This document shows, one piece after another, positions 11,931 to 64,000 of a DNA stretch of 64,000 bases; the stretch's first letter is position 1, and each line of letters opens with the position of its first letter. The notes beneath the pieces were generated by a model that saw only the letters and a list, made by a program, of their open reading frames with translations, was not told where the DNA came from and made no database searches. The position numbers and the translations under genes are program-made. Source of the stretch: Candidatus Pacearchaeota archaeon (GTDB lineage: Archaea; Nanobdellota; Nanobdellia; Pacearchaeales; GW2011-AR1); the NCBI GenBank assembly GCA_016186425.1, contig JACPLR010000011.1:13206-77205 (forward strand), read 5' to 3'.

Positions 11931-12107
11931 TAAAAACCACCTCCGGGTTTTTATGAATCCTGGAGCCACGTTGTAATAAGGCAAATATTTTATTTTTTAT
12001 TTTCTTTGCCTTTTTTATTTCTTAGAATATATTTTAATTAATAGTATATAATCTATAGAATTATTATGGTATTAAGCGGTTAATTAATAAAGTATCTGTA
12101 GCTTTCA

Positions 12108-12218
12108 CATTCAAATCAGGCAAAAATATGGGGTGTTTAGCTAAACTTTTTTCTGAAAATATTGCAATAAACAAATTTAAAGGAAAGTTTGATAAAGAAA
12201 ACCATGGGTTGTCTTTAT
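12108..12218 (+). repeat. A-type leader variant (aaatcaggcaaaaatat...) fused to B-type module (ggaaagtttgataaagaaaaccatgggttgtctttat)
   Basis: Shares aaatcaggcaaaaatat and gaaaatattgcaat with the copy at 55401. The B module is identical to the copy at 58228. Confidence 0.7.
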
Positions 12219-12280
12219 TTTTTAAGCTTGAAATGTTAATCTTTATCGTTTAGGTGGTTTTTAACTTGTAGAGATCATTA

Positions 12281-12372
12281 ACTTACTCATTTAAATTAGG
12301 AAAGGATGTTATGTAATTCAAGAACTTTTTGAAAACATACAATATCAAATTTTTCTATGTGAAAAATTTAAC
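12281..12372 (+). repeat. A-type intergenic repeat copy (leader + hairpin 1 TTCAAGAA..TTTTGAA + hairpin 2 AAATTTTTC-tatgtg-GAAAAATTT-AAC)
   Basis: cttactcatttaaattaggaaaggatgttatgtaattcaagaactttttgaaaacatacaatatcaaatttttctatgtgaaaaatttaac. Confidence 0.8.
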
Positions 12373-12483
12373 TTGATTTTATAGCTGTTTAATTTAATTA
12401 GTGTATGTGCATAATAGATTAGATATAACATACTTCTTTTTTACTTCCATAGAACTTAAAAATCCTCAATACTTAAGCATTTT

Positions 12484-13059
12484 ATGGAAAATCTTACAAA
12501 AGAGACTCTAGATGAACTGGATAATGCCAGGGATTTAGAAAACATGAAAAAAGTTGAAGCAGCGCTTTTTGTGTCTGGCAAGTTTCTTACAACACAAGAG
12601 CTAGTAGCTTTAACTGATTTAAATCCCATTCTTTTAAACCAGGTTTTAACTAAGCTCATGGATAAGTATGATGATGGCTCTGCGATTGAAATAGTTAATA
12701 AAGGAGATTTATGGAAAATGGATATTAAAGGGAATTATACCAGTATTGTAAATAAATTAGCTACAGGAAACGAAGAGTTTACAAGAGCTGAACAAGAGAC
12801 ATTAGCTGTTATTGCGCATAAGCAACCGATGAAACAGTCAATGGTTATTCAGATGAGGGGAAATAAAGCTTATGACCATATTAAAAGATTTACAGAACTC
12901 GGATTAATAAAGAGCAAGAGATTTGGAAGAACAAGAGAATTAAGCTTGAGCGATGATTTTTATGATTATTTCAGTGTTGGAAAGAAAGCCAATGAAATAA
13001 AAGAGAAAGAATCGGATAAAAAAGATTTATCGGAAGGGGATAAGGGAAAAGGAGAGTAA
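12484..13059 (+). CDS. scpB: Segregation and condensation protein B (ScpB)-like winged-helix protein
   Basis: VEAALFVSGKFLTTQEL matches the ScpB N-terminal wHTH, and a second wHTH-like repeat is present. Acidic/K-rich tail. Confidence 0.6.
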   Translation: MENLTKETLDELDNARDLENMKKVEAALFVSGKFLTTQELVALTDLNPILLNQVLTKLMDKYDDGSAIEIVNKGDLWKMDIKGNYTSIVNKLATGNEEFTRAEQETLAVIAHKQPMKQSMVIQMRGNKAYDHIKRFTELGLIKSKRFGRTRELSLSDDFYDYFSVGKKANEIKEKESDKKDLSEGDKGKGE

Positions 13060-13061
13060 TC

Positions 13062-14315
13062 ATGGAATTTTATCATGTTTTAATATACATTTTAGCATAT
13101 ATAGGGTTTTTTGCGATTGCATATTATGTAATAAGTCTTTTCACTTACTATAAAAATAAAGAAATAGATGGCGAAAGTACGGATAAGAAAGTAAGTATTT
13201 TAATTCCCGCTTATAATGAGGAAGAAGGCATAGCTAGAACAATTGAATCGGCTTTATCTCTTGACTACCCAAGAGATAAATTAGAAATTATAGTTGTTGA
13301 TGATGGCAGTCACGATGATACTTATAAAATTGCAAAAACATTTATTTCAAGTAAAAATTCTATAGTAAAAGTTTTTACCAAGAAAAATAATGGAAAAGCA
13401 TCTGCATTAAATTTTGGCATAGAAAAATCTAAAGGCGAGATAATTGTTTCTATGGATGCTGATAGTTTTGTTAATCCAGATGCATTAAAAAAAATGGTTT
13501 ATTTCTTTAAGAATAAAGAAGTTATGTCAGTATCTCCCTCTATGGGCGTTTATAAGCCAAAAAATATATTAGAGAGAATTCAGCATATAGAATATTACAT
13601 GGGAGTTTTTTTAAGAAAATCTTTCGCAACAGTTAATGCAATTCATATAACTCCTGGAGCCTTTTCAGCTTATAGAAAGGAATTTTTTTTAAAGCACGGA
13701 GGGTATGATGAAAAAAATATTACTGAAGATTTGGAAGTTGCCTTGAGAATTCAAAGATATGGTTATATTATAGAAAATGCTCCCAAGGCAGTCGCTTATA
13801 CTATTGTTCCAAAGACTTTTAGACCTTTAATGATTCAGAGAAGAAGATGGTATGTTGGACTTATAAATAATTTATGGGAATATAAAGATTTAATCAGCCC
13901 TAAAAAAGGGCCTCTTGGATTAGTTGTTCTGCCAGTTGCAATAATTACAGTCATCCTCTCTTTGATATTGACTGTTTATTCAATAATAAGGTCTTTAATT
14001 CAGGTTAGAAACGAGCTAATATCATTAAGCGCAATTAATTTTCGGTTTAACGATGCCTTTGAAATAAATCAGTTCGTTTTTAGCCAATTCTTTTATCAAT
14101 TATTTAGTTCACCAATATTTTTAATAAGTTTTATATTTGCAATTATAATGGCATTTTACTTGCGCTTTTCGAGGCATCAAATGAGATATAGCGAAAATAT
14201 CAGATTAAATTTATTCTTATTTTTATTCTTTTACAGTTTCCTTTTTTCTTTTTGGTGGATTATTTCATTTCTTTATGCTATATTAAATAAGAAAGTTATT
14301 TGGAGGAAAGAGTAA
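13062..14315 (+). CDS. Family-2 glycosyltransferase, processive beta-glycan synthase-like (PgaC/IcaA/NodC/cellulose-synthase-like), integral membrane
   Basis: Catalytic motifs appear in order: DDGSHDDT (D,D), SMDADS (DxD), TEDLEVALR (TED) and QRRRW (QxxRW). An N-terminal TM segment and several C-terminal TM segments are present. Confidence 0.75.
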   Translation: MEFYHVLIYILAYIGFFAIAYYVISLFTYYKNKEIDGESTDKKVSILIPAYNEEEGIARTIESALSLDYPRDKLEIIVVDDGSHDDTYKIAKTFISSKNSIVKVFTKKNNGKASALNFGIEKSKGEIIVSMDADSFVNPDALKKMVYFFKNKEVMSVSPSMGVYKPKNILERIQHIEYYMGVFLRKSFATVNAIHITPGAFSAYRKEFFLKHGGYDEKNITEDLEVALRIQRYGYIIENAPKAVAYTIVPKTFRPLMIQRRRWYVGLINNLWEYKDLISPKKGPLGLVVLPVAIITVILSLILTVYSIIRSLIQVRNELISLSAINFRFNDAFEINQFVFSQFFYQLFSSPIFLISFIFAIIMAFYLRFSRHQMRYSENIRLNLFLFLFFYSFLFSFWWIISFLYAILNKKVIWRKE

Positions 14316-14316
14316 G

Positions 14317-14955: not shown

Positions 14956-15034
14956 TTCTTACCATTTTCTTATGATTTTTTACCATTCTTTAGACTATAC
15001 AAAAGAATAAAAATAGCAGTTTTATATATTTTTC

Positions 15035-15763: not shown

Positions 15764-15822
15764 GGTTTTGAAATTTAATTCTGAAAATGTAAAAAAATAT
15801 TAGTAACTTAAGATGTAAAAAT

Positions 15823-15880
15823 AAGGGAAGGATATAGTATTATTTCAAGAACAATTTTGAAAATATCACAACATCTTTAC
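15823..15880 (+). repeat. A-type repeat, partial (leader + hairpin 1 only)
   Basis: ataagggaaggatatagtattatttcaagaacaattttgaaaatatcacaacat. Confidence 0.7.
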
Positions 15881-16023
15881 ATGGTTTTTAAGCCGGATTA
15901 AGTATGTTAAAATTACAATTTTCAGTGGCTTATCCTAATAAATTATGGAAAGATATTACATATTTTCAGAACTCAGAAAGATTTATAAGCCATCTTTTTG
16001 ATTCTATTTATAATTAAATCAAA

Positions 16024-16823: not shown

Positions 16824-16918
16824 CAGTAATTCTAGCGAAAAAGGCAGGGAAAGTTATGATGTGATTTCAAAATATTCTTGAAAATACACAATATAAAATT
16901 TTTCTATGTGAAAAATTT
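16824..16918 (+). repeat. A-type repeat copy (with upstream agta.ttctagcgaaaaa extension)
   Basis: tcagtaattctagcgaaaaaggcagggaaagttatgatgtgatttcaaaatattcttgaaaatacacaatataaaatttttctatgtgaaaaattttgcc. Confidence 0.8.
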
Positions 16919-16947
16919 TGCCTTATTTAGGCTAGGTTGTAGAATAT

Positions 16948-17817: not shown

Positions 17818-17927
17818 GATTATTTGAAGGAAGTAGTGTTATTAAGGTTAACTTTTTGCATCTAACTTATAGAGAATTCTAATTTCTAGAAGATAATTAA
17901 TAAAAATCAGAAACTTACTTATATAAA

Positions 17928-18005
17928 TAAGGTAAAGATGTGGCATGATTTCAGAACAATTTTGAATCTATACAATCCAAAATTTTTCTATGTGAAAAAT
18001 TTAAC
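17928..18005 (+). repeat. A-type repeat copy
   Basis: aaggtaaagatgtggcatgatttcagaacaattttgaatctatacaatccaaaatttttctatgtgaaaaatttaac. Confidence 0.8.
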
Positions 18006-18064
18006 ATGAGCTATTAGATATTTAAATTAATTGTAATAGCAACAATAGTTATGCCCTAATGGCG

Positions 18065-18688
18065 TTAACTTTTTGTATGTCTGCGAAAAATTTTTTTAGG
18101 AATTATTTTAATTCTTGCTGTTCCTTTTGCGGATATGTTTCCATTTGAATTTACATAGTCTGTTCTAATTTCATAATCTCTTTTTGAACCATCTATTTTT
18201 TTAAGTGTTCCAATATCAAGTAATGGATTTTGCAAAGGAATTCCATTAAATTCAAGTGTTTGGCTTAAATAAACTGGAAAGTTATCTTCCCCTATTAATT
18301 CTAGCCCTTGGCTGCTCCTTTGCAGGTCTCCTGCTATTAAATAAAGTAAATTAAATTTTTCATTATTCTCTCCACTATGGGTTCCATAACTAAATCTTCC
18401 CATGCATAATTCTTTTTCTTCTTTATCATGAAACATAAATTCTAAAGCATCTTCTTTCCTAGTTAAATTAAGCCATAAATTTAAAGGATAAAATGCTTGA
18501 TTTGTAAAACTAACCTCTAAACGTGAGACTGGCTTGCATAAATGACTTTCAACAAGTCTTGTATAATACATGCCTGGCATTACTTTTTGCCCTATATGAA
18601 GATTTATGTTTGGATCTTTTATTTCTTCAAGAAAGTTCTCAATTTTCTTATCTGATGTATTTTCTTCTGTTATTTTTATAGTTATCAT
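18065..18688 (-). CDS. Hypothetical protein (207 aa)
   Basis: Clean ORF between trmY and cbf5. No family recognised. Confidence 0.45.
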   Translation of the reverse strand: MITIKITEENTSDKKIENFLEEIKDPNINLHIGQKVMPGMYYTRLVESHLCKPVSRLEVSFTNQAFYPLNLWLNLTRKEDALEFMFHDKEEKELCMGRFSYGTHSGENNEKFNLLYLIAGDLQRSSQGLELIGEDNFPVYLSQTLEFNGIPLQNPLLDIGTLKKIDGSKRDYEIRTDYVNSNGNISAKGTARIKIIPKKIFRRHTKS

Positions 18689-23183: not shown

Positions 23184-23340
23184 GTTATTATTTTTAGTTT
23201 TTTAATATATAAAAATGTTTCATATTTTATTATCTATATATTAATTATAAAATATTTAACTATTAATTGATAAATAATAAAAGACACCAAAGTTTCTTTT
23301 ATGAAGCTTACTTTTAATTGCAAAGGGTTTTCTTTATGAA

Positions 23341-23400
23341 ACTTACTCATTAAAATTAGGCAAAGATATGATATGATTCAAGAACATTTTGAACTCATGC
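23341..23400 (+). repeat. A-type repeat, partial (leader + hairpin 1)
   Basis: acttactcattaaaattaggcaaagatatgatatgattcaagaacattttgaac. Preceded at 23281..23340 by two B-type modules in reverse orientation. Confidence 0.7.
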
Positions 23401-23510
23401 CATATTTCTGCCTTATCTTAAGCTAAATCAACTATTGCCAATTAAATTAAATAATTTTTAATATTCTAGCCAATCATAACCTTTAAAAGTCTATTTCTAT
23501 ATGCTATTTT

Positions 23511-25599: not shown

Positions 25600-25672
25600 G
25601 GGAAGCTTCATAAAAGAAACCGTAGGCATGTAAGAGGAAAGTTTGATAAAGAAAACCAGGGGTTGTCTTTAT
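25600..25672 (+). promoter_or_regulatory. B-type repeat (X unit ggaagcttcataaaagaaacc + Y unit ggaaagtttgataaagaaaacc + hairpin) ending 2 nt before rpl39e ATG; BRE/TATA-like
   Basis: gggaagcttcataaaagaaaccgtaggcatgtaagaggaaagtttgataaagaaaaccaggggttgtctttataATG. A purine block followed by TTGATAAAG ~30-40 nt upstream of the start codon resembles archaeal BRE+TATA (inference). Confidence 0.45.
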
Positions 25673-25673
25673 A

Positions 25674-25883
25674 ATGACAGTTCCAAAACGCCAAAGACAA
25701 AAGAAAATAAAGCTAGCAAAAGCTGGAAGTCAGACAAAATGGGCTCCATTCTGGGTTGTTGTAAAGAAATACGGGGCTGGAAAAAGAATTCATCCTTCAC
25801 GAACAACAAGAATAAAAAGAAACTGGAGAATAAGAAAGCTTAAGATCAAGCCAAGAATAATCAGAAAGAGGCATCTAGGTTAA
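25674..25883 (+). CDS. rpl39e: 50S ribosomal protein L39e
   Basis: Basic 69-aa protein. KRQRQKKIKLAKA...NWRIRKLK matches L39e (KK-rLaKa-kqnr-vP-Wv----). Confidence 0.85.
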   Translation: MTVPKRQRQKKIKLAKAGSQTKWAPFWVVVKKYGAGKRIHPSRTTRIKRNWRIRKLKIKPRIIRKRHLG

Positions 25884-26386: not shown

Positions 26387-26962
26387 ATGACAAAAAATAA
26401 AGCAATCCCTGCTGAAAGAGAATATATTATTAATCTAAGAAGAGAAATAATGAAAGTTCCTAGATATAGGCGAACCCCTAAAGCAATAAAAGCAATAAAG
26501 CAGTTTATTGCAAAGCATATGCGGGTTCCAGATAGAGATTTGAATAAAGTAAAAATTGACAAATGGCTCAATCAAGAAATGTGGTTTAGGGGAATTCAAA
26601 ATCCATTGGCAAAAATAAAAGTTAAAGCAAAAAAAGATGGTGAAAATATAATAGTTTCTTTAGTTGATATTCCTGAAAAAATAAAATTCCAGATGGTGAG
26701 AGAGGAAAAATCAAAGAAAGCTTCTGAAAAGGTAAAAGAAAAGAAAAAGCAGGAAAAGACAGAAGTTGAGAAACAAATTGAGGAAAAGCCTAAAAGCCCT
26801 GAAGAAATTGAGAAAGAGAAACAGGAAGAAAAGGAAAAGGAAGAGGCTGTTAAAGAAGCTGAAATCAAGCAGGCTGATTTAAGGGCAAAAGAGCAAAAAC
26901 ATGTTCAAAAAATAAAGCCTGCAAAAACAGAAAGAATTCAAAGAAAAGCCTTGCAAAAATAA
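26387..26962 (+). CDS. rpl31e: 50S ribosomal protein L31e with long K/E-rich C-terminal extension
   Basis: IPAEREYIINLRRE...VPRYRRTPKAIKAIKQFIAKHM...VKIDKWLNQEMW matches the L31e core (~90 aa). It is followed by ~100 aa of low-complexity KEKEE repeats. Confidence 0.8.
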   Translation: MTKNKAIPAEREYIINLRREIMKVPRYRRTPKAIKAIKQFIAKHMRVPDRDLNKVKIDKWLNQEMWFRGIQNPLAKIKVKAKKDGENIIVSLVDIPEKIKFQMVREEKSKKASEKVKEKKKQEKTEVEKQIEEKPKSPEEIEKEKQEEKEKEEAVKEAEIKQADLRAKEQKHVQKIKPAKTERIQRKALQK

Positions 26963-26984
26963 TTGTTCTTGAATCATTACAATA

Positions 26985-27075
26985 ATAAAGACAACCAAGG
27001 TTTTCTTTATCAAACTTTCCTTTTAAGTACCAAAGGTTTTTTATCAAACTTTCCTTTTAAAAGGAAAATTTATCC
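26985..27075 (-). repeat. Two tandem reverse-orientation B-type Y units downstream of rpl31e
   Basis: aataaagacaaccaaggttttctttatcaaactttcc....aaaggttttttatcaaactttcc. Confidence 0.65.
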
Positions 27076-27194
27076 TGATTTATTAGTTGTTTAAATTAAT
27101 TTTAGATTAATGATATGTTTAATAACTTGATATTTATTTAATAAAAAATAGTAGCTCCTGCGTAAAAATCAGATAGAGATATTGCTATATTGAT

Positions 27195-27250
27195 AAAAGA
27201 CACCAAGGTTTCTTTTATGAAACTTCCTTTTATTAGGAAAAATTTATGCT
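27195..27250 (-). repeat. Reverse B-type X unit + hairpin-2-like end
   Basis: aaagacaccaaggtttcttttatgaaacttccttttattaggaaaaatttatgc. Confidence 0.65.
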
Positions 27251-27254
27251 TTAT

Positions 27255-27785
27255 TTAAAGGTTATAATTGGCTAGAATATTAAAACGACTATGTAATGGG
27301 CTGGGCAATCTTGTTGCTCGACTAGCTGGATATTCAACCCTGTAACCTTTAAATTCCTCTGGAAGATTATGTTCTTTAGGTATGATTATTTTTCCAAGAG
27401 GGGATTTTAAATGAGCTTTTATTACTTGTTCGAAAACAGGTTTTTGATTGAAAAATCCTTTCCATTCAGGAATTCTTACCAGTGTTTCAACAGAAGTTAC
27501 TCCATAATCCGAAATGTTTAAGTTCATATCTTTATTGTAATGTATGATTCTTCCTTGGAAACCATCTAATAATATTTTTGATAATCCTTTTGTTAATTTA
27601 GTTACAAAATCTAAACTTTTTTGTATTCCTTCATTACTTGTTGCACTATACCACTTTAACTGTTCTTCTTGCCTAGCTTTTTCATGAGTCATATATTTAT
27701 CTACAAATATATCAAAAGCTTCGTTGAAAACTGGGTCTCTTAATTTTTCTTGTAAAGATTCTGCTTTAATTGTTTTTTTTAACAT
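27255..27785 (-). CDS. Hypothetical protein (176 aa)
   Basis: Clean ORF next to rbcL. No family recognised. Confidence 0.45.
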   Translation of the reverse strand: MLKKTIKAESLQEKLRDPVFNEAFDIFVDKYMTHEKARQEEQLKWYSATSNEGIQKSLDFVTKLTKGLSKILLDGFQGRIIHYNKDMNLNISDYGVTSVETLVRIPEWKGFFNQKPVFEQVIKAHLKSPLGKIIIPKEHNLPEEFKGYRVEYPASRATRLPSPLHSRFNILANYNL

Positions 27786-36240: not shown

Positions 36241-36340
36241 AAGTAGTTCCAGCGAATAAATGAAGGAAAATTATAGTGAAGATTCAAAAATATTCTTGAA
36301 TTACTACAATAAAAAATTTCTCGTTTAAGAGAAATTTAAC
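36241..36340 (+). repeat. A-type repeat copy (loop variant tcgttta)
   Basis: aagtagttccagcgaataaatgaaggaaaattatagtgaagattcaaaaatattcttgaattactacaataaaaaatttctcgtttaagagaaatttaac. Confidence 0.75.
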
Positions 36341-36412
36341 TTTATTTATTGTTTATTATCTCAATTTGAATTAATATTCTTTTAGGTGATTAGTTTCTAT
36401 TATTATATTTTA

Positions 36413-43192: not shown

Positions 43193-43350
43193 TTATTTTT
43201 TAAAATATATAATATAAAATTTTTCTTTTAGGAAAAATTTTGCATGATTTATTAGATATTTAATTTAGGTTTAATAATTGTAACTTTTATTTTTCCAGTT
43301 AATTATTTATACTATTCTTTACTTAAACTTCTATATAAAATTATAGAAAA

Positions 43351-44355: not shown

Positions 44356-44423
44356 AAATATTACAATAATTTTACCCGATTTTTAAGTTAAATTAGATAT
44401 GTTAAAATTACAAGTCTCTATAG

Positions 44424-44517
44424 CTTACTCATTTAAATAATGGAGGGAGATGGGATGATTTCAGATAAGGTTTTGAAAATAAGTAATCTAAAATTTTTCT
44501 ATGTAAAAAATTTATGC
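44424..44517 (+). repeat. A-type repeat copy
   Basis: cttactcatttaaataatggagggagatgggatgatttcagataaggttttgaaaataagtaatctaaaatttttctatgtaaaaaatttatgc. Confidence 0.8.
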
Positions 44518-44607
44518 CTAATTTAGAGCTTAAGTTATTATTGATCTCTATTCTGTTATGTATATTACTTACGATTTAATTCTTTATAATTAACTAAACT
44601 TTATATA

Positions 44608-45432: not shown

Positions 45433-45531
45433 AGTAGTTCTAGCGAAAAAATAAGTTAAAGGTATTAATGTATTTCAAAAAGTTTTTGAATCAATATAAG
45501 ACTAAATTTCTCTTTTGGGAGAAATTTAAAC
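45433..45531 (+). repeat. A-type repeat copy (loop variant ttttggga)
   Basis: agtagttctagcgaaaaaataagttaaaggtattaatgtatttcaaaaagtttttgaatcaatataagactaaatttctcttttgggagaaatttaaac. Confidence 0.75.
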
Positions 45532-45664
45532 TTAGTTATTGGCTGGTTAAGCTAAGCAGTTTTATTAATCTTATAATCTATTATCAACTACTTTTTCTAA
45601 TGATTTTACAACAAATATATTTAAAAACATCTTTAATTTTCTGCTATTCTACTGAATTATTAAA

Positions 45665-47698: not shown

Positions 47699-47825
47699 TA
47701 AAAAATTTAAAATTTTATAAATACCCCGGTATATTTTATACCTCTTTTTGGTATAAAACTTACCATAAATAATTTATAGTATATAATCTATAAAAAAATA
47801 TTAAAGCTTAATATATCTAGTGTGA

Positions 47826-47945
47826 AAATCGGGGAAGAATATGGTTATATTTCAAAATTATTCTTGAATCAACACTATACTAAATAATAAAGACAATCAA
47901 TGGTTTTCTTTATCAAACTTTCCTTTTATTAGGAGAAATTTAACA
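47826..47945 (+). repeat. Composite repeat: A-type leader + hairpin 1, reverse B-type module, then hairpin-2-like end (ttttattaggagaaatttaac)
   Basis: aaatcggggaagaatatggttatatttcaaaattattcttgaatcaacactatactaaataataaagacaatcaatggttttctttatcaaactttccttttattaggagaaatttaac. Confidence 0.8.
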
Positions 47946-48125
47946 TAATTTCAAGTAGTCACTAGTTTCTTAAGGTAAATGAGGTGTTTTGATAACTTAT
48001 AGTTTTTATATATTTTTGTAAAAAGAGATTTCATAAAGAGAATTATAAATTCTTTTTATTTTATATATCATAATATTTATATACTATACTGCCAATATTT
48101 GAATATAAAAAGAGAATAAAAGAGG

Positions 48126-51100
48126 ATGAGAATTAGCAAATTTGCTCTTAGTTTAATAGTTGTATTTATCTTTACTTTAGGATTATCTGTAGCTGTTTAC
48201 GCAGTTGACGACTTGATGGCTTTGCAGGGAAATGTGCAACAAAGCGGGGTTAATCTGGCTTCTGGAAACCTGACTGTTTATATTTTTGATGCTTATAGCA
48301 GTGGAAATGTTGTTTATAATTCAACCACTGATTTTTTTAATTCTATTTCAAGCGGAAAATATGATGTAATGCTTGGAAATGGCTCGCAAACATTAAGCCT
48401 TGAATACGGAAGAACATATTTTCTTGAAATGTATGTTAATAATGAGAAGCTAAGCTTTAATGGCTCAACAAGGCAGGTATTCCAGAGTTCTGCAGGCCAG
48501 ATTAATGGCAGTTTTATTAATCCAAACCAGATAAATACAACCCATATTTCTGGAAACATTTCTTTCACACAATTATCTGGATACGAAAATATTGTTTTAA
48601 CAAATAAATCCTCAACATTATCTGATGGCTACAACATTACAACTGGCGCTGGGGGATGGTTTAAAGGGCTGTTTAATTGGATTATAAACTCAACATCATC
48701 CCTTTATTTAAGCTTTAATGGAACAACTTTAAGTTTTAATGAAGCGCAATTAAATTCAACTATTGACTCTAGAGTTAGCTGGGGAGGATATATAATTTCA
48801 TCAGTAAGCAATAACACATTCTCTCAAATAACAAACAATACATTCTCTTTAATAACAAATAACACATTCTCTCAAATAACAAACAATACATTCTCTTTAA
48901 TAACAAATAATACACTCTCTCAAATAACAAATAATACACTCTCTCAAATAACAAATAATACTTTCTCTTTAATAACAAATACAACATTCTCAACTATTGG
49001 TAATAACACAATTTCAACCATAGGAAATTCCACCTTTTCTTTAATTACAAACACAACTATTTCAACAATTGGGAATAATACTTATTTAAAAATTACAGAC
49101 AATAATCTTTATCTTAATTTCACGCCTTCTGGTACAGTTGACTTTAATAGGGGATGGCAGTCTGGAGGGCTGACAATAAGCAACGGAAATATTTTTGCTC
49201 AAACAGGTTATTTTTATAATATAACTTCACTAGCCGTAAATAATCTTAATGTAAATGCGAGCATAATTCCTGGGACTGGATTTGATTCAACATTTGATAT
49301 TGGAAACGTGACTTCTAGATGGAGAGATGCCTTTTTTACAGGTGTTGTTAATGCCTCAACATTCTCGGCAAAATATCTGAATGCAACAACAGAAGCTTAC
49401 ATTAATGGCGCTGCTGTTAGCACTTGGCTTTATAACCAAACAACGCCCGCATCAATAATCGGCAACTCATCTGTAAGTAATCTGATTAACAATACTTTTT
49501 CTCCAATATCTAACAGCACATTTTCATTAATTACTAATACTACCTTTTCAGAAAGAATTAATGCAACTTATCCATTTATTTCAAATTTTTCAATATCAAA
49601 AACAATTAATGAAACTTTATCTGAAAGAGGAAATGCAACTTATGTAAAGTTAGGTTATAATCCATTCAACCAAGACCTTAACACATCAGATTCTGTTATC
49701 TTCCAAAATATAACTTTAACAGGGAATTTGACTCTTAAAAGTTCTTTTATGAATAATACACAAGTAATTTTCATTAACAGTCCTACTAACGGTGAATTAG
49801 TAGATGGATTATATTTAACAAAAACAGCCGATGCAAGCAGGAACTGGATAACTTGGAATCAAGGCGCATCTGGTTTAGCAGATTGGAGAATTGGCATGAC
49901 TAGAAATTCTATAGGAGGTTATTCTTTATCTTTTTATAATGCTAATGGCTCTACGTCAAATGCAACAAATCCTGGATTAGAAGTTTTAAGATTAACTGGT
50001 TATACTCAAGCTGGAAATGTTATTATTCCAAATGGGAGAGTAGGAATAAATATAACCTCTCCAGCAGCTGCTTTAGATGTAAATGGGGGAATTATTGGAG
50101 CAAACATAACTTCAACAGGAAATTTAACTATAAGCGGGAATGCAACATTTTTAGATAGGGTTGGAATAGGAACAGCAAGTCCTGCAGCAACTTTAGATGT
50201 TAATGGAGGAGATATAAGAGTTAATGGAGAAATTGTTACTAATAATTATAGCAGAATAGTTTTAACAAGACCAGACCAATTAGCAAGCGGAAATGTTTTA
50301 AATATAATTAATTATGGGGCAAATCAAAGCGACCAAACAAATTTAGGGATATCAACAACTAATACTACAATGATTTTTACAAATATTGGAAGTCCTGAAC
50401 AGGTTGCTTTTGCAATAGGAACAAGAGGTTCTTCTCCTTTAGTATTTTCTACAAATAATGCAGAAAGAATGAGGATACTTTCTGGAGGGAATGTGGGGAT
50501 AGGAACAACAACTCCTGCAAAAACATTAGAAGTTGCAGGACAAGCTCAAATTAGGTCTACATCTCCTGAATTATATTTTAATGATACAAGTGCAACAGGG
50601 CAAAATTATAGATTATCAATGTTTAATGATGATTTTTTGCTTCAAGATTGGAATGGTGCAAATACAATATTCCAAATGAATAATACCAGAATAGTTTTTA
50701 ATAAAAATGTTGGAATTGGGACAACAACTCCGAAAGCAACTTTAGATGTTAATGGAAATTTAACTATCACTGGGAATTTAACAATTACAAACGGAACAAC
50801 TGATAATGTTATATTCTATGCTAATCCTGTAAATTCAAGAGTTGGAATAGGAACAGTAAGCCCTGCAAATAATTTGAATATTCTTGCGGGGGCTGTTTCA
50901 AATATAGTTAATATATCTTCAAACGGGGCAAATAGAGAAGGAGATATAATATTAGGAAGAACAACAGGATATTTTGTATCATCAACTCCAGGAGGTTTTA
51001 TTTCTACTGCGGATACTTTGTCAATTGTCTCTGCAAACCATATTTCTTTCGGCAATTCAAGTTCTCTTGTTGAATATGCAAGAATTACGGGAGATGGAAA

Positions 51101-51884: not shown

Positions 51885-52163
51885 TGATTATTTACAAAAT
51901 AAAAAGGAATTAAAATGTTTTATAAATTAGAACATTTGTTCAAGAAATTAGAACAAGAGAAAGAAAAGATGAAGAAAAATAAAATAATATCAGTTAATAA
52001 GTATAATAAATTAGGCAAAAGTATTTCATGGTTTCAAGATATTATGAATCATTACCATACTAAATTTCTCATTAGAGAGAAATTTAACCTTATTTATTTG
52101 GCTAGTTAAGTTTATTAAATTTATAAAATGGGCGTGAAAAATGGAAAATAAATATGAGAATAT

Positions 52164-52529
52164 TTATTTAATTCGGAATCCAAATAAAGAAAGGATAAAT
52201 AATTTGCCAGAAAATTCTATCGGGCTAATTTCATTAAATAACTTTGAGAGTGATGAAAATATGACCTCAATCCTTGGTGGATGTAGGTCTATAAAAATAA
52301 TTCCTGGATGCTCTTTTGGAGGAAACAGGTTTTTATCTATGAAGTGCTTATCAAAAGTTAATATAACTCTCGATTCGGCTTTTGCTAGGTTCGAAAGAAT
52401 TTTGTCAGTTGCACCTATAGGTATTTTTTTAATGTCAAAACCCTCTTTGATCAACAATTCAGTCAGTCCAACAGGTATATTTTCATCAGAAATAAGCTTT
52501 GGTTTATTGGAAGAGGACATATTTCTCAT
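52164..52529 (-). CDS. DUF5615 (PIN-like) putative toxin, cassette 1
   Basis: KLISDENIPVGLTELLIKEGFDI...ILTFDKHF matches the DUF5615 pattern (M-fLlDENl......L...GhDv...ilT-D-DF). Overlaps the end of the DUF433 gene. Exact start is uncertain (Met at 52550, 52529 or 52520). Confidence 0.6.
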   Translation of the reverse strand: MRNMSSSNKPKLISDENIPVGLTELLIKEGFDIKKIPIGATDKILSNLAKAESRVILTFDKHFIDKNLFPPKEHPGIIFIDLHPPRIEVIFSSLSKLFNEISPIEFSGKLFILSLFGFRIK

Positions 52530-52740
52530 CTTCCACAAGCTTAGAAGCATAGTTCAAGACAGAGAAAATAGCTTCTTTATTGAGTTGCGGGAAATAATTT
52601 TTTATAATCTCCTCAATAGTTATTCCGCTTCCAAGAAGCTCCAATACCTGCCATACCATAATTCTAGTATTCTTGAATACAGGCTTTCCGTGGCATATTT
52701 CACTATCTACAATAATATAATCATTTATTTCAATTCTCAT
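52504..52740 (-). CDS. DUF433 putative antitoxin, cassette 1
   Basis: MRIEINDYIIVDSEICHGKPVFKNTRIMVWQVLELLGSGITIEEIIKNYFPQL closely matches the DUF433 consensus (I--dP-i--GkP-i-GTRI-V--vl--l--G-s-eEI---YP-Lt-e-I-aAL-yA). Confidence 0.75.
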   Translation of the reverse strand: MRIEINDYIIVDSEICHGKPVFKNTRIMVWQVLELLGSGITIEEIIKNYFPQLNKEAIFSVLNYASKLVEDEKYVLFQ

Positions 52741-52900
52741 AAAGCAATTAAGTCAGAAGAAGTATTTAAACTTTCTGAATCTTTACCATATTTTAAGCAT
52801 GATATTAATAATCATCAGCTTTTATATAATGATTTAAAGCATATAAATTATAGAAAATGAAACTTAAAAATAGAATAACTTCAATAGATAAGTATGGCAA
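52741..52900. repeat. Direct repeat copy 1 (~145 bp) immediately upstream of the cassette 1 DUF433 start
   Basis: Nearly identical to 53596..53745 (tcagaagaagtatttaaactttctgaatctttaccatattttaagcatgatattaataatcatcagcttttatataatgatttaaagcatataaattatagaaaatgaaacttaaaaatagaataacttcaatagataagtat). Confidence 0.85.
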
Positions 52901-53018
52901 AAGCATTATAGGATTTCATAATATTTATTTGACTAGTTAAATTAGTGTTTGTTGACTTTATAAAATGAGCGTGAAAAATGGAAAATAAAATTAATGAAAG
53001 AATTAAAACAGAGCAAGA

Positions 53019-53360
53019 TTATAGTATTTTAAACTCTTTATCCGAGATTAAAAGAATAACTCTTCCTTTTAATTCATACTCTGAAAATTTTTTTAATAGG
53101 TTTAATATCGCATTTTTTTGTAGATCAACCTTATTTGGAGGGATTCTTAATAATATTATCCCAAAATGGTGTTCTAAAGAAGAATATGGAGGCTTTGAAA
53201 AATCAGTATCTTGTGAAATAATTATTCTTTCTTTAGTTATTGCTAATTTAAAGACTTCACCATTTTTAATTCCTTTAGGGCAGAATATAACATCATGCCC
53301 TAATTTCTTTAGAAAAGAAAGTAAATTATTATGTGCATTTTCGTCCAATAAAAATCTCAT
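53019..53360 (-). CDS. DUF5615 (PIN-like) putative toxin, cassette 2
   Basis: MRFLLDENAHNNLLSFLKKLGHDVIF...IIISQDTDF...GIILLR matches DUF5615. Its start is 1 nt after the DUF433 stop. Confidence 0.7.
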   Translation of the reverse strand: MRFLLDENAHNNLLSFLKKLGHDVIFCPKGIKNGEVFKLAITKERIIISQDTDFSKPPYSSLEHHFGIILLRIPPNKVDLQKNAILNLLKKFSEYELKGRVILLISDKEFKIL

Positions 53361-53361
53361 T

Positions 53362-53595
53362 TTATACAGCTATAGTGTCAAAACTTCTTTTAGTAAGCTT
53401 GGTAGCAAGATCAAGTGCTGCTTTAATGTGCTCTTTTGTAAGAGAGGGATAGGCCTCAAAGATATCATTTATACTAGCTCCTTCTTCAAGCATTTCAAGA
53501 ACGAGATATACCATTATCCTAGTCCCTTTAAATACAGGTTTTCCATGGCATATTTCACTATCTACAATGATATAGTCATTTATGTCAATTCTCAT
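53362..53595 (-). CDS. DUF433 putative antitoxin, cassette 2
   Basis: MRIDINDYIIVDSEICHGKPVFKGTRIMVYLVLEMLEEGASINDIFEAYPSLTKEHIKAALDLA is canonical DUF433. The first ~30 aa are near-identical to the cassette 1 antitoxin. Confidence 0.8.
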   Translation of the reverse strand: MRIDINDYIIVDSEICHGKPVFKGTRIMVYLVLEMLEEGASINDIFEAYPSLTKEHIKAALDLATKLTKRSFDTIAV

Positions 53596-53750
53596 AAGCT
53601 AATTAAGTTAGAAGAAGTATTTAAACTTTCTGAATCTTTACCATATTTTAAGCATGATATTAATAATCATCAGCTTTTATATAATGATTTAAAGCATATA
53701 AATTATAGAAAATGAAACTTAAAAATAGAATAACTTCAATAGATAAGTAT
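53596..53750. repeat. Direct repeat copy 2 upstream of the cassette 2 DUF433 start
   Basis: See copy 1. This is the shared promoter/5' region of the two TA-like operons. Confidence 0.85.
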
Positions 53751-55281: not shown

Positions 55282-55400
55282 TATATTTTATGAACTTTGC
55301 AAATACAAAATTATAAGTAAAAATAAAAGATAATTGATATTATCCTATAAATATTAGAGAAATTAAAAGAGGTAATTTAAAATTAGCAGTTAAGTATAAA

Positions 55401-55482
55401 AAATCAGGCAAAAATATTGCAATATTATCTAAGATTTTTGAAAATATACAATAAATAAATTTTTCTCCAAGAAAAATTTAAC
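55401..55482 (+). repeat. A-type repeat copy (leader variant; loop variant tccaag)
   Basis: aaatcaggcaaaaatattgcaatattatctaagatttttgaaaatatacaataaataaatttttctccaagaaaaatttaac. Confidence 0.75.
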
Positions 55483-55825
55483 ATTATTTGATACTATTAA
55501 TTAAGTTACAGCTAAATTTATAATATATAATTTATAGCATCTTAGAGTATAAGGTATTAATCTTTATAATTTATGTATTTTGATCAGTAATTGGCATAAT
55601 TTATGCATTATTTAGATAAATACTTATCACTTAATCTGTTATTATATTAATTTATCTAATCTTTAATTGTCCTTTATTATATTCATTGCCCTAATTTGAT
55701 TAATATGCTATAAAAAACATCTCTTGCAATTACTACTTTTTAATTGCCATTATTCTTGCTTAATTGTTATTACTAAAAACTAAGGCTTAGGAAAAATTTA
55801 TAAATCTTAGTCTTTTAAGAATTAT

Positions 55826-57337: not shown

Positions 57338-57490
57338 GTTGATACTAGAATTATTTCTTAAATAAGCAGTTAAATATTGTTTTTTTTAAAAACAGAGAGG
57401 TTTAAATATTGTTTTTTCTTAAAAAAATTATGGATATTGAAAAGGTATTTGAAGAATGGAATGCTTATGCAGAAAAGAGGGAACTTATAG

Positions 57491-57560
57491 AGAGAAATTT
57501 AAAATGATTTATAGTTGTTTAAATTAAATTCTTTAACATTAATGAAGTGATTTTAACTCG
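57491..57560 (+). repeat. C-type repeat (~70 bp), second copy at 63768..63838
   Basis: agagaaatttaaaatgatttatagttgtttaaattaaattctttaacattaatgaagtgattttaact versus agaagagatttaaaatgatttatagctgtttaaattaaactctttaacattaataaagcgattctaact. Confidence 0.7.
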
Positions 57561-57587
57561 ATATATTTTAATTATTTTGGTTAAGCC

Positions 57588-58148: not shown

Positions 58149-58227
58149 AAAATATCAATATATCAATATTATAATTATAGATAAAATGATGCTAATAATG
58201 TTAGATTAAGCATAAATTTTCTTTTTA

Positions 58228-58268
58228 AAAGGAAAGTTTGATAAAGAAAACCATTGGTTGTCTTTATT
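58228..58268 (+). repeat. B-type Y unit + hairpin (forward)
   Basis: aaaggaaagtttgataaagaaaaccattggttgtctttat. A 10-bp stem aaagaaaacc/ggttgtcttt is predicted. Confidence 0.65.
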
Positions 58269-58408
58269 ATTTATTGTAGCAATTCATAAACATTTTGAAG
58301 CCACACCATAACTTTCCATGCTTTATTAGTTTAATTTACTAGTTTTGTTATTAAGCACAATATATATTCATAAATTTAATCTATTTTTATCTTTTATATG
58401 CTATTTTA

Positions 58409-60061: not shown

Positions 60062-60064
60062 TTT

Positions 60065-60427: not shown

Positions 60428-60452
60428 AATAAAATATCTTTTATTTTCATTT

Positions 60453-60809: not shown

Positions 60810-60810
60810 T

Positions 60811-62340: not shown

Positions 62341-62364
62341 GAGGGTTTATTGTTAATTCTATTA

Positions 62365-62841
62365 TTAAAATTTGCGGTTAAAATTGAGGGTTTCTTTTGC
62401 CATATTGGTTGGCATGCCTAAGCTGATTAACAAGGAAAATAAATCATATTTGTTCTTGTTTTCAGCATTAAACAGGATAATTTTAACTTTGTATTTATTA
62501 CATAATTTAATATTTTGAATCATTTTTTCGGCACACAAAGAAAGTTCTTTTTCATTTTTTTCATAGAAAATATTGAAATCAATTCCAATTAAAATATTAT
62601 TCTCTTTAGCTAATTTACATAAAACTTGGTTTAGGCCAGAATCTCTTTGTTTTAGCTTGTCTTTTCTGGATTTAAAATCCCTAAATAGCAAAATATCAAT
62701 TTTTTTAATCTCAAGAACTTTTCTATTAAATTCATCATTTTTAGCAGTTACAACTATGCTTTGGCTAAGGTTAGAATATTTATTTATTAGATTTTTTGCT
62801 TCGTTTATATTGTCTGTATTAATTAACTGATAATTTTTCAT
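62365..62841 (-). CDS. rnp3: RNase P protein component 3 (Rpp30/Rnp3), shortened
   Basis: By recollection of the Pyrococcus Rpp30 C-terminal half (GIDHVLAKL...ALGF...YKVRRFLTSSAQ...DLISLG), the segment GLNQVLCKLAKENNILIGIDFNIFY...YKVKIILFNAENKNKYDLFSLLISLGM appears to match it. No alignment or profile search was possible. Confidence 0.5.
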   Translation of the reverse strand: MKNYQLINTDNINEAKNLINKYSNLSQSIVVTAKNDEFNRKVLEIKKIDILLFRDFKSRKDKLKQRDSGLNQVLCKLAKENNILIGIDFNIFYEKNEKELSLCAEKMIQNIKLCNKYKVKIILFNAENKNKYDLFSLLISLGMPTNMAKETLNFNRKF

Positions 62842-62891
62842 ATATTAACAAGAAATAATAACTTTATAAATAATAATGTTTTAACTATAAC

Positions 62892-63584
62892 ATGGAAAAG
62901 AGGATATTTGTATTAAGCATTGGCGGAAGCCAGATATTTAAAGATAATAAAATAAATGTTAGTTTTCTTAATAAATTTAAAAAAATTATTTTATCCAATA
63001 TAAAAAACAAGAAATTTATAATAGTATGTGGTGGGGGAAGTGTTGCAAGAATGTACATTCAAGGATTGAAAAATGTAAATGCTAGCGAGAAACTTCAAAG
63101 CTTTGCGGGAATTTCTGTCACAAGGACAAATGCGAGATTTTTGAGTTATTTCTTTGGATTTGATGCTGAAGATGGGATAGCACATACAATGCAGGATATT
63201 GAAAAAATCATTAAAAAACAAGATGTTGTATTTTGCGGAGCACTGGAATACCATCCCCATCAAACAAGCGATTCGACAGCCGCCCAAATTGCAGAGCATT
63301 TTAATTGTGATTTTATAAACCTAACAAATGTTGCGGGTTTATACACTTCTAATCCACTAACAAACAAAAATGCCAAGTTTATACCTTATATTACTTGGAA
63401 AAAATTTCATGAAATAGCTCTAAAAATCCCATTCAAGCCAGGCCAGCATTTTGTCCTGGACCAAAAAGCATCTAAAATAATTCTAGAAAAGAAGATAAAA
63501 ACATATATTCTTGGTTCAAATTTAAAAAATCTTGAGAATTTATTTATGGGAAAAAAATTTAATGGAACAATTATATTTGGATAA
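62892..63584 (+). CDS. pyrH: Uridylate (UMP) kinase, archaeal type
   Basis: Amino-acid-kinase fold motifs SIGGSQIF (GGS), VCGGGSVAR, GISVTRTNARF, QTSDSTAAQIAEHFNCDFINLTNVAGLYTSNP and C-terminal NGTII. Confidence 0.8.
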   Translation: MEKRIFVLSIGGSQIFKDNKINVSFLNKFKKIILSNIKNKKFIIVCGGGSVARMYIQGLKNVNASEKLQSFAGISVTRTNARFLSYFFGFDAEDGIAHTMQDIEKIIKKQDVVFCGALEYHPHQTSDSTAAQIAEHFNCDFINLTNVAGLYTSNPLTNKNAKFIPYITWKKFHEIALKIPFKPGQHFVLDQKASKIILEKKIKTYILGSNLKNLENLFMGKKFNGTIIFG

Positions 63585-63646
63585 TTTATTGTTATGCCTT
63601 ATTACCCATAACTTATACTATATAACTTATAATGGATTAAGTAAAA

Positions 63647-63790
63647 CTACTTGTTCTAGCTGATAAACTGAGGGAAAGTATTATAGTATTTTCAAAATTT
63701 TGAATCATTACAATACTAAATAATAAAAAGAACCAAGGTTCTTCTTATGACATCTCCTTTTAATAGAAGAGATTTAAAATGATTTATAGC
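63647..63790 (+). repeat. Composite repeat, close relative of 47826..47945 (A leader + hairpin 1 + reverse B-like + hairpin-2-like end)
   Basis: gagggaaagtattatagtattttcaaaattttgaatcattacaatactaaataataaaaagaaccaaggttcttcttatgacatctccttttaatagaagagatttaaaatg. Confidence 0.75.
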
Positions 63791-63871
63791 TGTTTAAATT
63801 AAACTCTTTAACATTAATAAAGCGATTCTAACTTATAAAATGAATTAAGCTCAGCAACTTAAATATATAAA

Positions 63872-63950
63872 TTATGGAGAGAGATTATATTATTTCATAA
63901 TATTTTTTGAAAATACACTATAGCAACTTTTCATAATGAAAATTTATGCT
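63872..63950 (+). repeat. A-type repeat, degenerate copy
   Basis: ggagagagattatattatttcataatattttttgaaaatacactatagcaacttttcataatgaaaatttatgc. Confidence 0.55.
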
Positions 63951-64000
63951 TAATTTGGAGTAGATTAATAAAGCATTCATAGTTCATTTCAATAATTTTG

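Follow-up and report, generated by a model that had tools for sequence, protein, structure and literature searches.

Short repeats occupy the intergenic gaps of this archaeal DNA and run in a nearly common direction along the chromosome, a behaviour that ordinary miniature transposons do not show. The locus raises the question of what kind of element these repeats represent and how their direction arose.

Copies and modular structure of the repeat family

The window, which is the whole 64-kb stretch of DNA analysed here, contains ~19 copies or fragments of the family, as detected over its full length with nhmmer profiles and a covariance model. All 12 copies listed in the first-pass annotation (12.3, 15.8, 16.9, 18.0, 23.4, 36.3, 44.5, 45.5, 47.9, 55.4, 63.7 and 63.9 kb) were recovered, each on the + strand. 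Beyond these, the + strand carries copies at 12.10 (partial), 26.96, 27.15, 43.16, 52.00 and 57.49 kb (a fragment), and the minus strand carries a full copy (58182–58340) and two fragments (12172–12230 and 25624–25684). The palindrome AAATTTTTC-N(5-8)-GAAAAATTT reported earlier has five exact matches, versus 0.01 expected by chance.

The element spans ~130–160 bp rather than the ~90 bp originally assigned, with conserved left and right arms flanking the three parts first recognized. Its modules are arranged in the order left arm, purine block, hairpin 1, ACAATA block, optional B hairpin, hairpin 2 and right arm. The left arm is A/T-rich and exists in three variants. Hairpin 1 is the palindrome TTTCAA..TTGAAA, hairpin 2 is AAATTTYTC..GARAAATTT, and each copy contains 0–2 extra B hairpins. 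The supposed SD-like leader is a loose purine block with the consensus AGGnAAAGaTATgg; GGGAAGGATATGG was found in only 2 true copies when 2 mismatches were allowed, and the pattern alone is not above chance. The mini-ORFs thought to follow its ATG are conserved among copies in neither length nor sequence. No terminal inverted repeats were found, and the arms pair no better with their cognate partners than with non-cognate ones.

Full A copies are observed on the + strand at 12279–12408 (12.3 kb), 51996–52125, 55385–55520 and 63852–63985 (nhmmer and covariance model), the last in tandem with an A copy that has a B-variant hairpin (63653–63810, +; nhmmer and covariance model). The same two methods located an A copy with a degenerate hairpin 1 (43158–43276, +), with ORF 42557–43192 ending inside its left part, and an A copy in which a B hairpin separates the mid block from hairpin 2 (47815–47975, +). 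The partial A copy at 12097–12177 (+; nhmmer E=1.5e-5) consists of the left arm, purine block, degenerate hairpin 1 and mid block; by sequence reading, an inverted B unit comes next, which is the 12172–12230 fragment (ATAAAGACAACC..GGTTTTCTTTAT plus CAAACTTTCCTTT; minus strand, nhmmer E=1e-16). Among the nhmmer matches, a 5′-truncated A copy with B units (26961–27104, +) begins at the 3′ arm of hairpin 1 immediately after the L31e stop codon, and a diverged A copy with a B-variant hairpin follows at 27150–27263 (+). The + strand fragment at 57487–57558 comprises the hairpin-2 3′ arm and right arm and is 90% identical to 63763–63833.

Among the copies listed earlier, those at 15.8 and 23.4 kb lack hairpin 2. 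Both are head-to-head chimeras built from a left half, hairpin 1 and the reverse complement of the left half. The first (15807–15900, +) was recognized from profile matches on both strands and from its sequence; the second (23338–23437, +; nhmmer and covariance model) forms a long hairpin centred on hairpin 1, with B-like hairpins directly upstream at 23273–23346. Truncated, chimeric, nested and tandem copies are all present in the window. No near-identical full copies were found within the family, which gives no sign of present mobility.

Orientation and gene context

The claim that all copies share one orientation stands as an extreme bias of ~16–18 to 1 (two-sided binomial p ~1e-4 from these counts), but strict uniformity is broken by the minus copy at 58.2 kb. 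Because this full copy and two minus fragments were found, the family is strongly biased rather than uniform. The minus copy (nhmmer E=5.7e-15, with a covariance-model match) carries a B insert and lies downstream of PheRS-beta, co-directional with it. Orientation is more mixed in the B-hairpin subfamily, at roughly 5 to 3. Four + copies were confirmed to be located between minus-strand genes, including the full A copies at 16824–16945 (nhmmer and covariance model) and 17909–18040, each between two such genes, and at 36242–36372 (nhmmer and covariance model). Orientation therefore tracks the chromosome and not the adjacent genes, as first proposed, which rules out simple promoter or 5′-UTR elements. 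Third codon positions show an excess of G and T on the + strand, whatever the gene direction, with a replication component of ~+0.06. This weak compositional signal, from one 64-kb stretch, suggests that the + strand carries leading-strand sequence.

Most intergenic gaps of at least 150 bp are occupied by repeat copies, which fill the free DNA from a stop codon to the next leaderless promoter. The promoters are located outside the elements and are conserved in relatives without the elements. Their location between stop codons and promoters would suit cis-regulatory modules for the flanking genes, namely bidirectional terminators, insulators or operators of one transcription factor, as would a T5 run on both strands of hairpin 2 in most copies and two palindromes that could serve as dimer binding sites. 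We regard such modules as very unlikely: gene direction has no bearing on orientation, at 23.4 kb the adjoining genes diverge from the site and no gene 3′ end is near, the T5 run is lost in the C:G variants of hairpin 2, close relatives have the same promoters at the orthologous genes even where the element is missing, and the flanking genes have no function in common. A dimeric transcription-factor operator in particular, as suggested earlier, fits poorly with a half-site spacing of anything from 5 to 8 nt and with covarying stems, and is unlikely.

Between 43 and 52 kb, directly oriented repeats separate single genes, in the manner of attC-like recombination sites of an integron-type cassette array. 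The ATTTAAC that ends hairpin 2 fits the RYYYAAC inverse core, GTTAAGY is present in some right arms, and toxin-antitoxin genes adjoin elements in relatives. An attC array is nevertheless extremely improbable, being effectively refuted by gene content and conserved synteny. The family is not an integron because the genes between copies are archaeal housekeeping genes (FtsZ, ScpB, GatA, PolB, FEN1, Trm5, PheRS, CysRS and ribosomal proteins), which are essential and syntenic and have their own promoters; moreover, no integrase was found, no single long imperfect hairpin links the ends, and only a few copies have a GTTRRRY site.

Hairpins and the RNA interpretation

As first noted, the loops of hairpin 2 differ in length and sequence over a conserved stem, which is 93% paired. 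A double change from U:A to C:G was observed in 5 of 16 copies, and these compensatory changes, together with the variable loops, support the maintenance of hairpin 2 as a hairpin. A test of cognate versus non-cognate pairs detected no long-range pairing or covariation, so that only local hairpins are supported. Mean folding z-scores are ~-1.5 on the + strand versus ~-1.9 on the minus strand, the minus strand folding equally well or better. The covariation in hairpin 2 and the equal folding stability of both strands fit DNA palindromes.

The structured small RNA proposed for the family gained no specific support, given the lack of Rfam matches at E values as high as 10, of long-range covariation and of a strand preference in folding. 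In its fullest form, this reading makes the copies a multi-copy set of genes for small structured non-coding RNAs; transcription would be from the + strand, the genes would be kept in the direction of replication, and the conserved single-stranded purine block and ACAAUA would act as seeds between two hairpins. It would account for the compensatory changes and variable loops of hairpin 2, which are also seen between orthologous copies, for an orientation independent of adjacent genes and for the constant placement, in every left-arm variant, of a TATA-like A/T box immediately 5′ of the purine block. Wobble-compatible mismatches also lean towards it (10 on the + strand versus 4 on the minus strand), although not significantly. 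However, the purine block is not transcribable from the TATA-like box because the spacing between them is shorter than the 22–24 nt of local promoters, and hairpin 2 itself contains a T5 run, an archaeal termination signal. RNA genes are further disfavoured by the near-neutral divergence of the copies, with orthologues no closer than paralogues, by the many truncated or chimeric copies and by the lack of the family in slightly more distant relatives, and we consider them unlikely.

Relatives and probable origin of the family

The family is present in the window and in the relatives L146 (5–6 copies in 21 kb), L150/L156 (7 in 28 kb) and L018, with 0 significant matches in 226 kb of more distant relatives (FEN1 identity 49–74%). 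It is confined to a narrow Pacearchaeota clade. Orthologous copies exist for 45433–45570 (+, a full A copy after Trm5; L146 11948–12066), 51996–52125 (L146 19863–19983) and the right part of 12279–12408 (L156 18079–18160). Among the orthologous sites compared, those at 36.3, 43.2, 44.4 and 17.9 kb are occupied only in the window. The 36242–36372 copy sits in ~211 bp missing from L146, the 43.2 kb site is empty in L146 and L150, the full A copy between FEN1 and Trm5 (44421–44550, +) is missing from both, and the 17909–18040 site is empty in L156. Conversely, a site upstream of an M24 peptidase gene is occupied only in L146 and L150. Some empty sites could be explained by deletion of a copy. Comparison of the filled sites with relatives revealed neither a target-site duplication nor a sharp insertion boundary; the filled sites contain 20–60 extra, poorly conserved bases on either side of the element.

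Pairwise identity among all copies is 62–80% and star-like. Identity at FEN1 4-fold sites between the same genomes is 63–66%, matching the repeat divergence. These comparisons show that the copies diverge at a near-neutral rate with the hairpin stems kept. Copies also coincide with rearrangements: the break points of an NFACT-L31e block inversion and a helicase inversion are in or beside copies, with the 23338–23437 chimera at one break point of the former. The reversed pieces are those inside inverted segments, among them a B unit with a second B-like half (25624–25684, minus; nhmmer), and the L156 copy orthologous to 16824–16945 is inverted.

These comparisons bear on whether the copies are polar chromosomal sites for a host machine (replication, segregation or condensation, fork-direction sensing, or Orc1-type binding) with orientation selected relative to the replichore. 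The extreme bias extends to three genomes and to non-orthologous copies, elements beside the inverted gene block are + in both genomes despite the flipped genes, and a left-arm variant (GTTCCAGCGAA ... GG) may faintly resemble archaeal origin-recognition boxes (ORBs). However, a core chromosomal function should not be limited to so narrow a clade. The gain and loss of sites between close relatives, the near-neutral drift, the tolerance of reversed copies and the copy-free stretches (the first 12 kb, 28–36 kb and 37–43 kb of the window) also make such sites improbable, and recognition as a duplex site is hard to reconcile with variable loop lengths and covarying stems.

The family multiplied in the ancestor of the narrow Pacearchaeota clade, and its copies have since drifted at a roughly neutral rate with stems retained and palindromes coinciding with break points of gene-block inversions. 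In our judgement, the chances are about even that this was an old burst of non-autonomous mosaic repeats, interspersed and restricted to the clade, which would be an archaeal counterpart of the bacterial REP/BIME, BOX or MITE types rather than genes or operators. The near-uniform orientation would have been fixed at insertion by a strand-specific, replication-coupled mechanism acting on hairpins in single-stranded DNA at the replication fork, as IS200/IS605 and presumably REP/RAYT do; the + strand here would probably be the lagging-strand template, and the few reversed copies may be later flips by local inversions. IS200/IS605 elements have similar hairpins at their two ends, whereas hairpins 1 and 2 are unlike each other, which counts against an IS200/IS605-type reading.

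Mobile elements had been dismissed in the first-pass annotation since MITEs should show mixed orientation. The comparative evidence instead favours mobile or selfish DNA, comprising the narrow clade, filled and empty sites, truncated and chimeric copies, near-neutral divergence and inversion break points. Strand-specific transposition is a known source of such an orientation bias (PMC5027513, PMC3971601): IS200/IS605 elements are documented to insert strand-specifically into the lagging-strand template (PMC5027513), and IS elements to show family-specific orientation bias (PMC3971601).

REP/BIME elements of proteobacteria are likewise short extragenic palindromes joined with linker motifs into mosaic elements, without terminal inverted repeats or target duplications. 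They are intergenic only, reach hundreds of copies, are old and diverged, and act as rearrangement hot spots. Their mobilization depends on RAYT, an IS200/IS605-type Y1 transposase, whereas ~125 kb from three genomes showed no transposase, RAYT or TnpB gene. Furthermore, the hairpins here are A/T-rich and of three unrelated kinds, in contrast to the one kind in alternating orientation of REPs, the host is a DPANN archaeon, and the orientation bias is, to our knowledge, far stronger than any in REPs. Prokaryotic MITEs are similarly small, A/T-rich, multi-copy and intergenic, vary in presence among strains and contain no coding gene, but the terminal inverted repeats (tested) and target-site duplications of MITEs are lacking here, and MITE orientation is normally near random.

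Non-autonomous elements derived from IS200/IS605 (haloarchaeal PATEs and Deinococcus SREs) share the hairpins and the lack of inverted repeats or duplications, and lagging-strand-template insertion ties their orientation bias to replication (PMC5027513). Here, by contrast, the two hairpins are mutually unrelated, the flanks yielded no conserved tetranucleotide, neither tnpA nor tnpB was seen and the ends are not sharp. The BOX elements of Streptococcus pneumoniae (boxA-boxB(n)-boxC) are also modular, with a varying number of internal hairpins (boxB there, B here), and are intergenic, ~70–600 bp in length and able to form stable structures (PMC3049150). BOX has terminal inverted repeats and target duplications, whereas no inverted repeats are present here. 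The orientation bias of the pneumococcal BOX, RUP and SPRITE repeats is only ~61%, the proportion of BOX on the leading strand (PMC3049150), versus ~95% in one orientation here.

Modular architecture and census of the repeats

The window carries an archaeal, strongly polarised mosaic interspersed repeat, copies of which (A copies) lie exclusively in intergenic DNA. An A copy consists, from left to right, of a left arm, a purine block, hairpin 1, an ACAATA-containing block, hairpin 2 and a right arm. The left arm is A/T-rich and occurs in three unrelated variants (AACTTACTCATTTAAATTA, GTTCTAGCGAAAAA.. and AGTTAAGTATAAAAAATCA), and the purine block is loose (AGGnAAAGaTATgg). Hairpin 1 (TTTCAA..TTGAAA) and hairpin 2 (AAATTTTTC/GAAAAATTT) differ in sequence, and the latter is followed by a right arm of the form AAC.TGATTTATTAGCTGTTTAAATTAA. 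The unit had been put at ~90 bp in the first-pass annotation. Its actual length is ~130 bp once the conserved left and right arms are counted, and weak similarity reaches ~20 bp beyond the left end.

Exact matches to the palindrome AAATTTTTC-N(5-8)-GAAAAATTT number five in the window, where chance predicts 0.01. A profile made from five copies recovered 13 plus-strand copies in the window, and a broader profile combined with a covariance model containing both hairpins yielded ~19 copies or fragments. Plus-strand A copies start at positions 12097, 12279, 15807, 16824, 17909, 23338, 26961, 27150, 36242, 43158, 44421, 45433, 47815, 51996, 55385, 63653 and 63852. A plus-strand fragment starts at 57487, and the sole full minus-strand copy in the window occupies 58182-58340. 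All twelve copies listed in the first-pass annotation were recovered by the profile and covariance-model searches, although that list overlooked the copies at 43.2 and 52.0 kb, the minus-strand copy and the diverged copies at 12.1, 27.0 and 27.2 kb. The G+C content of the window is ~30%, and no tRNA was found in it. If the density in the window held genome-wide, the repeats would make up an estimated ~4% of the sequence (~19 x ~135 bp / 64 kb).

The number and order of modules vary between copies, and left-arm variants, head-to-head chimeras and tandem copies are all observed. Hairpin 2 is missing from two copies, at 15.8 and 23.4 kb, in which the left half is followed by hairpin 1 and then by the reverse complement of that left half. 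Two A copies are truncated at hairpin 1, one at 26961 in the window and one at 18079-18160 in the related locus L156. A solo motif, TTTTCTGAAAATATTACAATAATTT, overlies the FEN1 stop codon in the window (44350-44378) and is conserved in relatives (L146, ~11000-11030; L150, ~11000-11060). It looks like the 3' arm of hairpin 1 plus the ACAATA block, with the remaining element absent.

Self-comparison of the window revealed a second unit, B, a 45-nt near-perfect hairpin (ATAAAGACAACC..GGTTTTCTTTAT) followed by the tail CAAACTTTCCTTTTA, which resembles the left arm and purine block of A. B copies are 91-94% identical to one another, far closer than the A copies are among themselves. An A copy contains zero to two B units, which occur in both orientations and are also found outside A copies. 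The units lie on the plus strand at 26979-27066, 27196-27239, 47877-47935 and 63715-63766, with variants at 23273-23346, and on the minus strand at 12172-12230, 25624-25684 and 58221-58278. In the copies at 27.0, 47.9, 58.2 and 63.7 kb, B is placed between the ACAATA block and hairpin 2. At 12.1-12.2 kb it is inverted within a partial copy, and at 25.6 kb it stands apart from any A copy.

Local hairpins of the A copies

Hairpin 2 is maintained as a structure, one of two options that the first-pass annotation had raised. It is paired to 93% across 16 copies. At one pair, 11 copies have U:A and five have C:G, and intermediates without pairing do not occur. None of 500 shuffles reached the covariation score. 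The same compensatory change also distinguishes orthologous copies of different genomes. Hairpin 1 is uninformative on pairing either way because it is almost invariant.

Pairing beyond the two hairpins is not supported. RNAalifold recovered hairpin 2 alone and no long-range pairing, and the duplex energy of a copy's own arms (-6.67 kcal/mol) is matched when the arms come from different copies (-6.61 kcal/mol). Pairing of the left arm with the right arm and of the purine block with the middle block, which had been seen by eye, was negative in both tests and was rejected as a low-complexity artefact. The fold z-scores are modest (mean ~-1.5 on the plus strand and ~-1.9 on the minus strand), and wobble-compatible mismatches favor the plus strand by 10 to 4 in the G:T versus A:C comparison. 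Neither the mismatch asymmetry nor the strand-specific z-scores identify a functional strand. At the gathering score, no family in Rfam 15 matched the window; at E values up to 10, two 2.4-2.6-kb stretches with three copies each gave chance-level matches only. Readings as a C/D-box sRNA or a micro-peptide gene were rejected, given that the copies contain no conserved boxes or ORFs. Combined, the structure tests support local palindromes or hairpins and lend no support to any defined RNA fold or to transcription of one particular strand.

Orientation, turnover and rearrangement

The orientation bias of A copies in the window is ~16-18 to 1 (two-sided binomial p ~1e-4, computed from these counts). 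The strand bias reported in the first-pass annotation is thus strong, although the full minus-strand copy at 58182-58340 shows that it falls short of uniformity. Four plus-strand copies sit between minus-strand genes and one between divergent genes, and orientation therefore follows the chromosome and not the genes. In the frame of the window, the relatives' loci exhibit the same bias. L146 contains five or six full copies, all on the plus strand, and a reversed partial piece (B-B'-hairpin 2-right arm) upstream of an inverted helicase promoter. L150/L156 contain six plus-strand copies and one reversed copy. The reversed copy (L156, 13622-13719) occupies the orthologous site of the window copy at 16824-16945, and the opposite orientations suggest an in-place inversion or a second insertion. 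The hairpin-2 loop and right arm are common to both copies, which suggests the in-place inversion.

Third-codon-position skew, analyzed by gene strand, reveals a small plus-strand excess of G (~+0.06) and T (~+0.07) that is independent of gene direction. Such an excess is the usual signature of a leading strand. The skew, a weak signal from the composition of the window only, suggests that the plus strand carries leading-strand sequence. The orientation data cover sequence that includes neither an origin nor a terminus. The archaeal origin recognition box (ORB) is a dyad, TCCAnnnGGA, with a G-string, clustered at an A/T-rich unwinding element beside orc1/cdc6. One left-arm variant (GTTCCAGCGAA) may resemble this box, and no orc1 gene is found in the window.

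The family is present in L146-149 and L150/L156, two lineages that share 88-89% FEN1 identity with the window, and in L018, another Pacearchaeota assembly. L018 is the only true copy among the matches listed in a permissive palindrome-pattern scan of genome contigs, the others being chance matches. Relatives with FEN1 identities of 49-74% gave no significant match (20 loci, 226 kb). The family was likewise absent from 18 metagenome loci found through FEN1 (49-67% identity), and a pattern scan of viral contigs returned chance hairpins only. The permissive pattern also matched many contigs of the "Bacillota bacterium OH_*" MAG set (including L005, L011, L029 and L046), which suggests that a comparable A/T palindrome occurs in these MAGs as part of some unrelated repeat or terminator family.

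Comparison of orthologous sites reveals turnover. The sites at 17.9, 36.3, 43.2 and 44.4 kb are occupied only in the window, and L146 and L150 alone carry a copy upstream of the M24 peptidase gene. Both genomes compared have a copy following Trm5, one ahead of gene 52141 and one between FtsZ and ScpB. At filled sites, the extra DNA exceeds the recognizable element by 20-60 bp per side. No target-site duplication is visible at 17.9, 36.3 or 44.4 kb in comparison with L146/L156, at sites with diverged flanks and fuzzy boundaries. Identity among the copies is 62-80%, both inside one genome and across genomes; the pattern is star-like, and orthologues resemble each other no more than paralogues do. 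Because this identity matches that of the four-fold degenerate sites of FEN1 between the same genomes (63-66%), the elements drift at a roughly neutral rate and date from about the time when the lineages split. Three alternatives, namely that the repeats are a family of plus-strand sRNA genes, a polar DNA site read by the host, or terminator or operator modules, are all made less likely by the limited distribution, the turnover of sites and the neutral drift.

The repeats occupy most of the longer gene gaps in the window and coincide with inversion break points. The NFACT-CRS1-S19e-L31e block (23.5-27.0 kb) is inverted relative to the gene orders of L156 (6046-8406) and the related contig L151 (109-1728), and at both of its junctions in the window lie A elements interrupted at hairpin 1. 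B units inside the inverted block are on the minus strand, and their counterpart in L156 is oriented in the usual way. The XPD-like helicase gene (45665-47698) is inverted in L146 (12100-15480), and a partial element moved there along with the inverted promoter. These inversions could plausibly have arisen by recombination at the palindromes, which predicts the head-to-head chimera at 23.4 kb. An inversion model with two simple breaks accounts for this chimera but only incompletely for the junction on the right at 27.0 kb and for those of the helicase. The L146 helicase contains an intein with a LAGLIDADG domain (1126 residues versus 677 in the window). Toxin-antitoxin modules (PIN/VapB and DUF433/DUF5615) adjoin elements in L146 (1147-1751 and 19435-20599) and L150 (2469-3129); these modules are variable islands bordered by repeats, and the same positions in the window hold other genes.

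Relation to known repeats and to host genes

Among described repeats, the nearest counterparts are REP/BIME and BOX-type mosaics, whose modular, variable and intergenic build is matched here. A classical MITE differs in its terminal inverted repeats, which are absent from the A copies (arm energies of -6.67 versus -6.61 kcal/mol; three left-arm variants). Elements of the IS200/IS605 type (PATE, REP/RAYT) lack terminal inverted repeats and target duplication; the A copies have no terminal inverted repeats, and no target duplication is visible at the compared sites with their diverged flanks. The end hairpins of the IS200/IS605 type are alike, whereas hairpins 1 and 2 are unlike. No transposase, including a Y1 HUH TnpA/RAYT or an autonomous partner element, was found in ~125 kb from three genomes. 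No description of such elements in Pacearchaeota was found in the part of the literature covered.

The evidence points to a non-autonomous interspersed repeat that spread in an old burst, because the family combines a narrow clade, a high copy number, filled and empty orthologous sites and near-neutral drift with truncated, nested, tandem and chimeric copies, a location in dispensable DNA between stop codon and promoter, and an association with inversions. The first-pass annotation had disfavored mobile DNA; the filled and empty sites, narrow clade, broken copies and near-neutral drift argue for a mobile repeat instead. To our knowledge, near-complete strand polarity is rare among small interspersed repeats. 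Only ~61% of the pneumococcal BOX, RUP and SPRITE repeats lie on the leading strand (PMC3049150). Given the extreme polarity, the strand-specific insertion of IS200/IS605 into the lagging-strand template (PMC5027513) and the family-specific orientation bias of several IS families relative to replication (PMC3971601), we infer that a hairpin-bearing single strand may have inserted strand-specifically in a replication-coupled manner, the few reversed copies deriving from later local inversions. The two hairpins of the family are unlike, its ends are not sharply defined, and the direction of replication is suggested by composition only. A more far-reaching and rather improbable reading is that the elements are the footprint of an undescribed DPANN mobility system that is replication-coupled, single-stranded and hairpin-guided, either a REP/RAYT-like "REPtron" or a new enzyme, with a polarity set by the fork or co-opted by the host as a replichore-polar signal and with palindromes that drive the gene-block inversions common among close relatives.

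DPANN archaea have tiny, streamlined genomes that are usually considered poor in repetitive DNA. The interest of the repeats lies mainly in their polarity and in their role in rearranging a minimal genome. At the density of the window, they would rank as a major, previously undescribed force in the genome architecture of this clade, and their polarity offers a handle on the insertion mode and the direction of replication in an uncultured archaeon.

The genes among the repeats encode GatA, FtsZ, ScpB, RpoL, Cbf5/TruB, S19e, L31e, form III RuBisCO, CysRS, RsmB, PolB, FEN1, Trm5, the XPD-like helicase, PheRS alpha and beta and RNase P p30. The FEN1 encoded in the window is identical to an NCBI protein assigned to "Candidatus Pacearchaeota archaeon" and encoded on an 83-kb contig. 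Because these genes are housekeeping genes whose order around the repeats is conserved in relatives, an integron-like cassette array is ruled out; the genes also have their own promoters, and the elements lack the end-to-end pairing of attC sites. The promoters contain a TTTATATA-like box that precedes the ATG by 22-24 nt, as observed upstream of 43351, 44629, 12484, 52141 and 36178 (minus strand). This spacing implies that the mRNAs are probably mostly leaderless. No other intergenic sequence is as well conserved between relatives as these boxes, which sit outside the elements and persist where a genome lacks the element, and a promoter reading of the repeats was accordingly rejected. Directly after FtsZ, a conserved G+C-containing hairpin, GGCAAATATTTTATTTTTATTTTCTTTGCC, is followed by a T run (window, 11990-12040; L156, ~18160-18200) and may be a terminator-like signal. 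Two tandem paralogues with no assigned function (52141-52860 and 52978-53715) share 67% nucleotide identity over ~860 nt, the small adjacent ORFs at 7215-7290 and 7490-7565 form another paralogous pair, and a 1252-residue uncharacterized protein contains an internal repeat (48790-49108).
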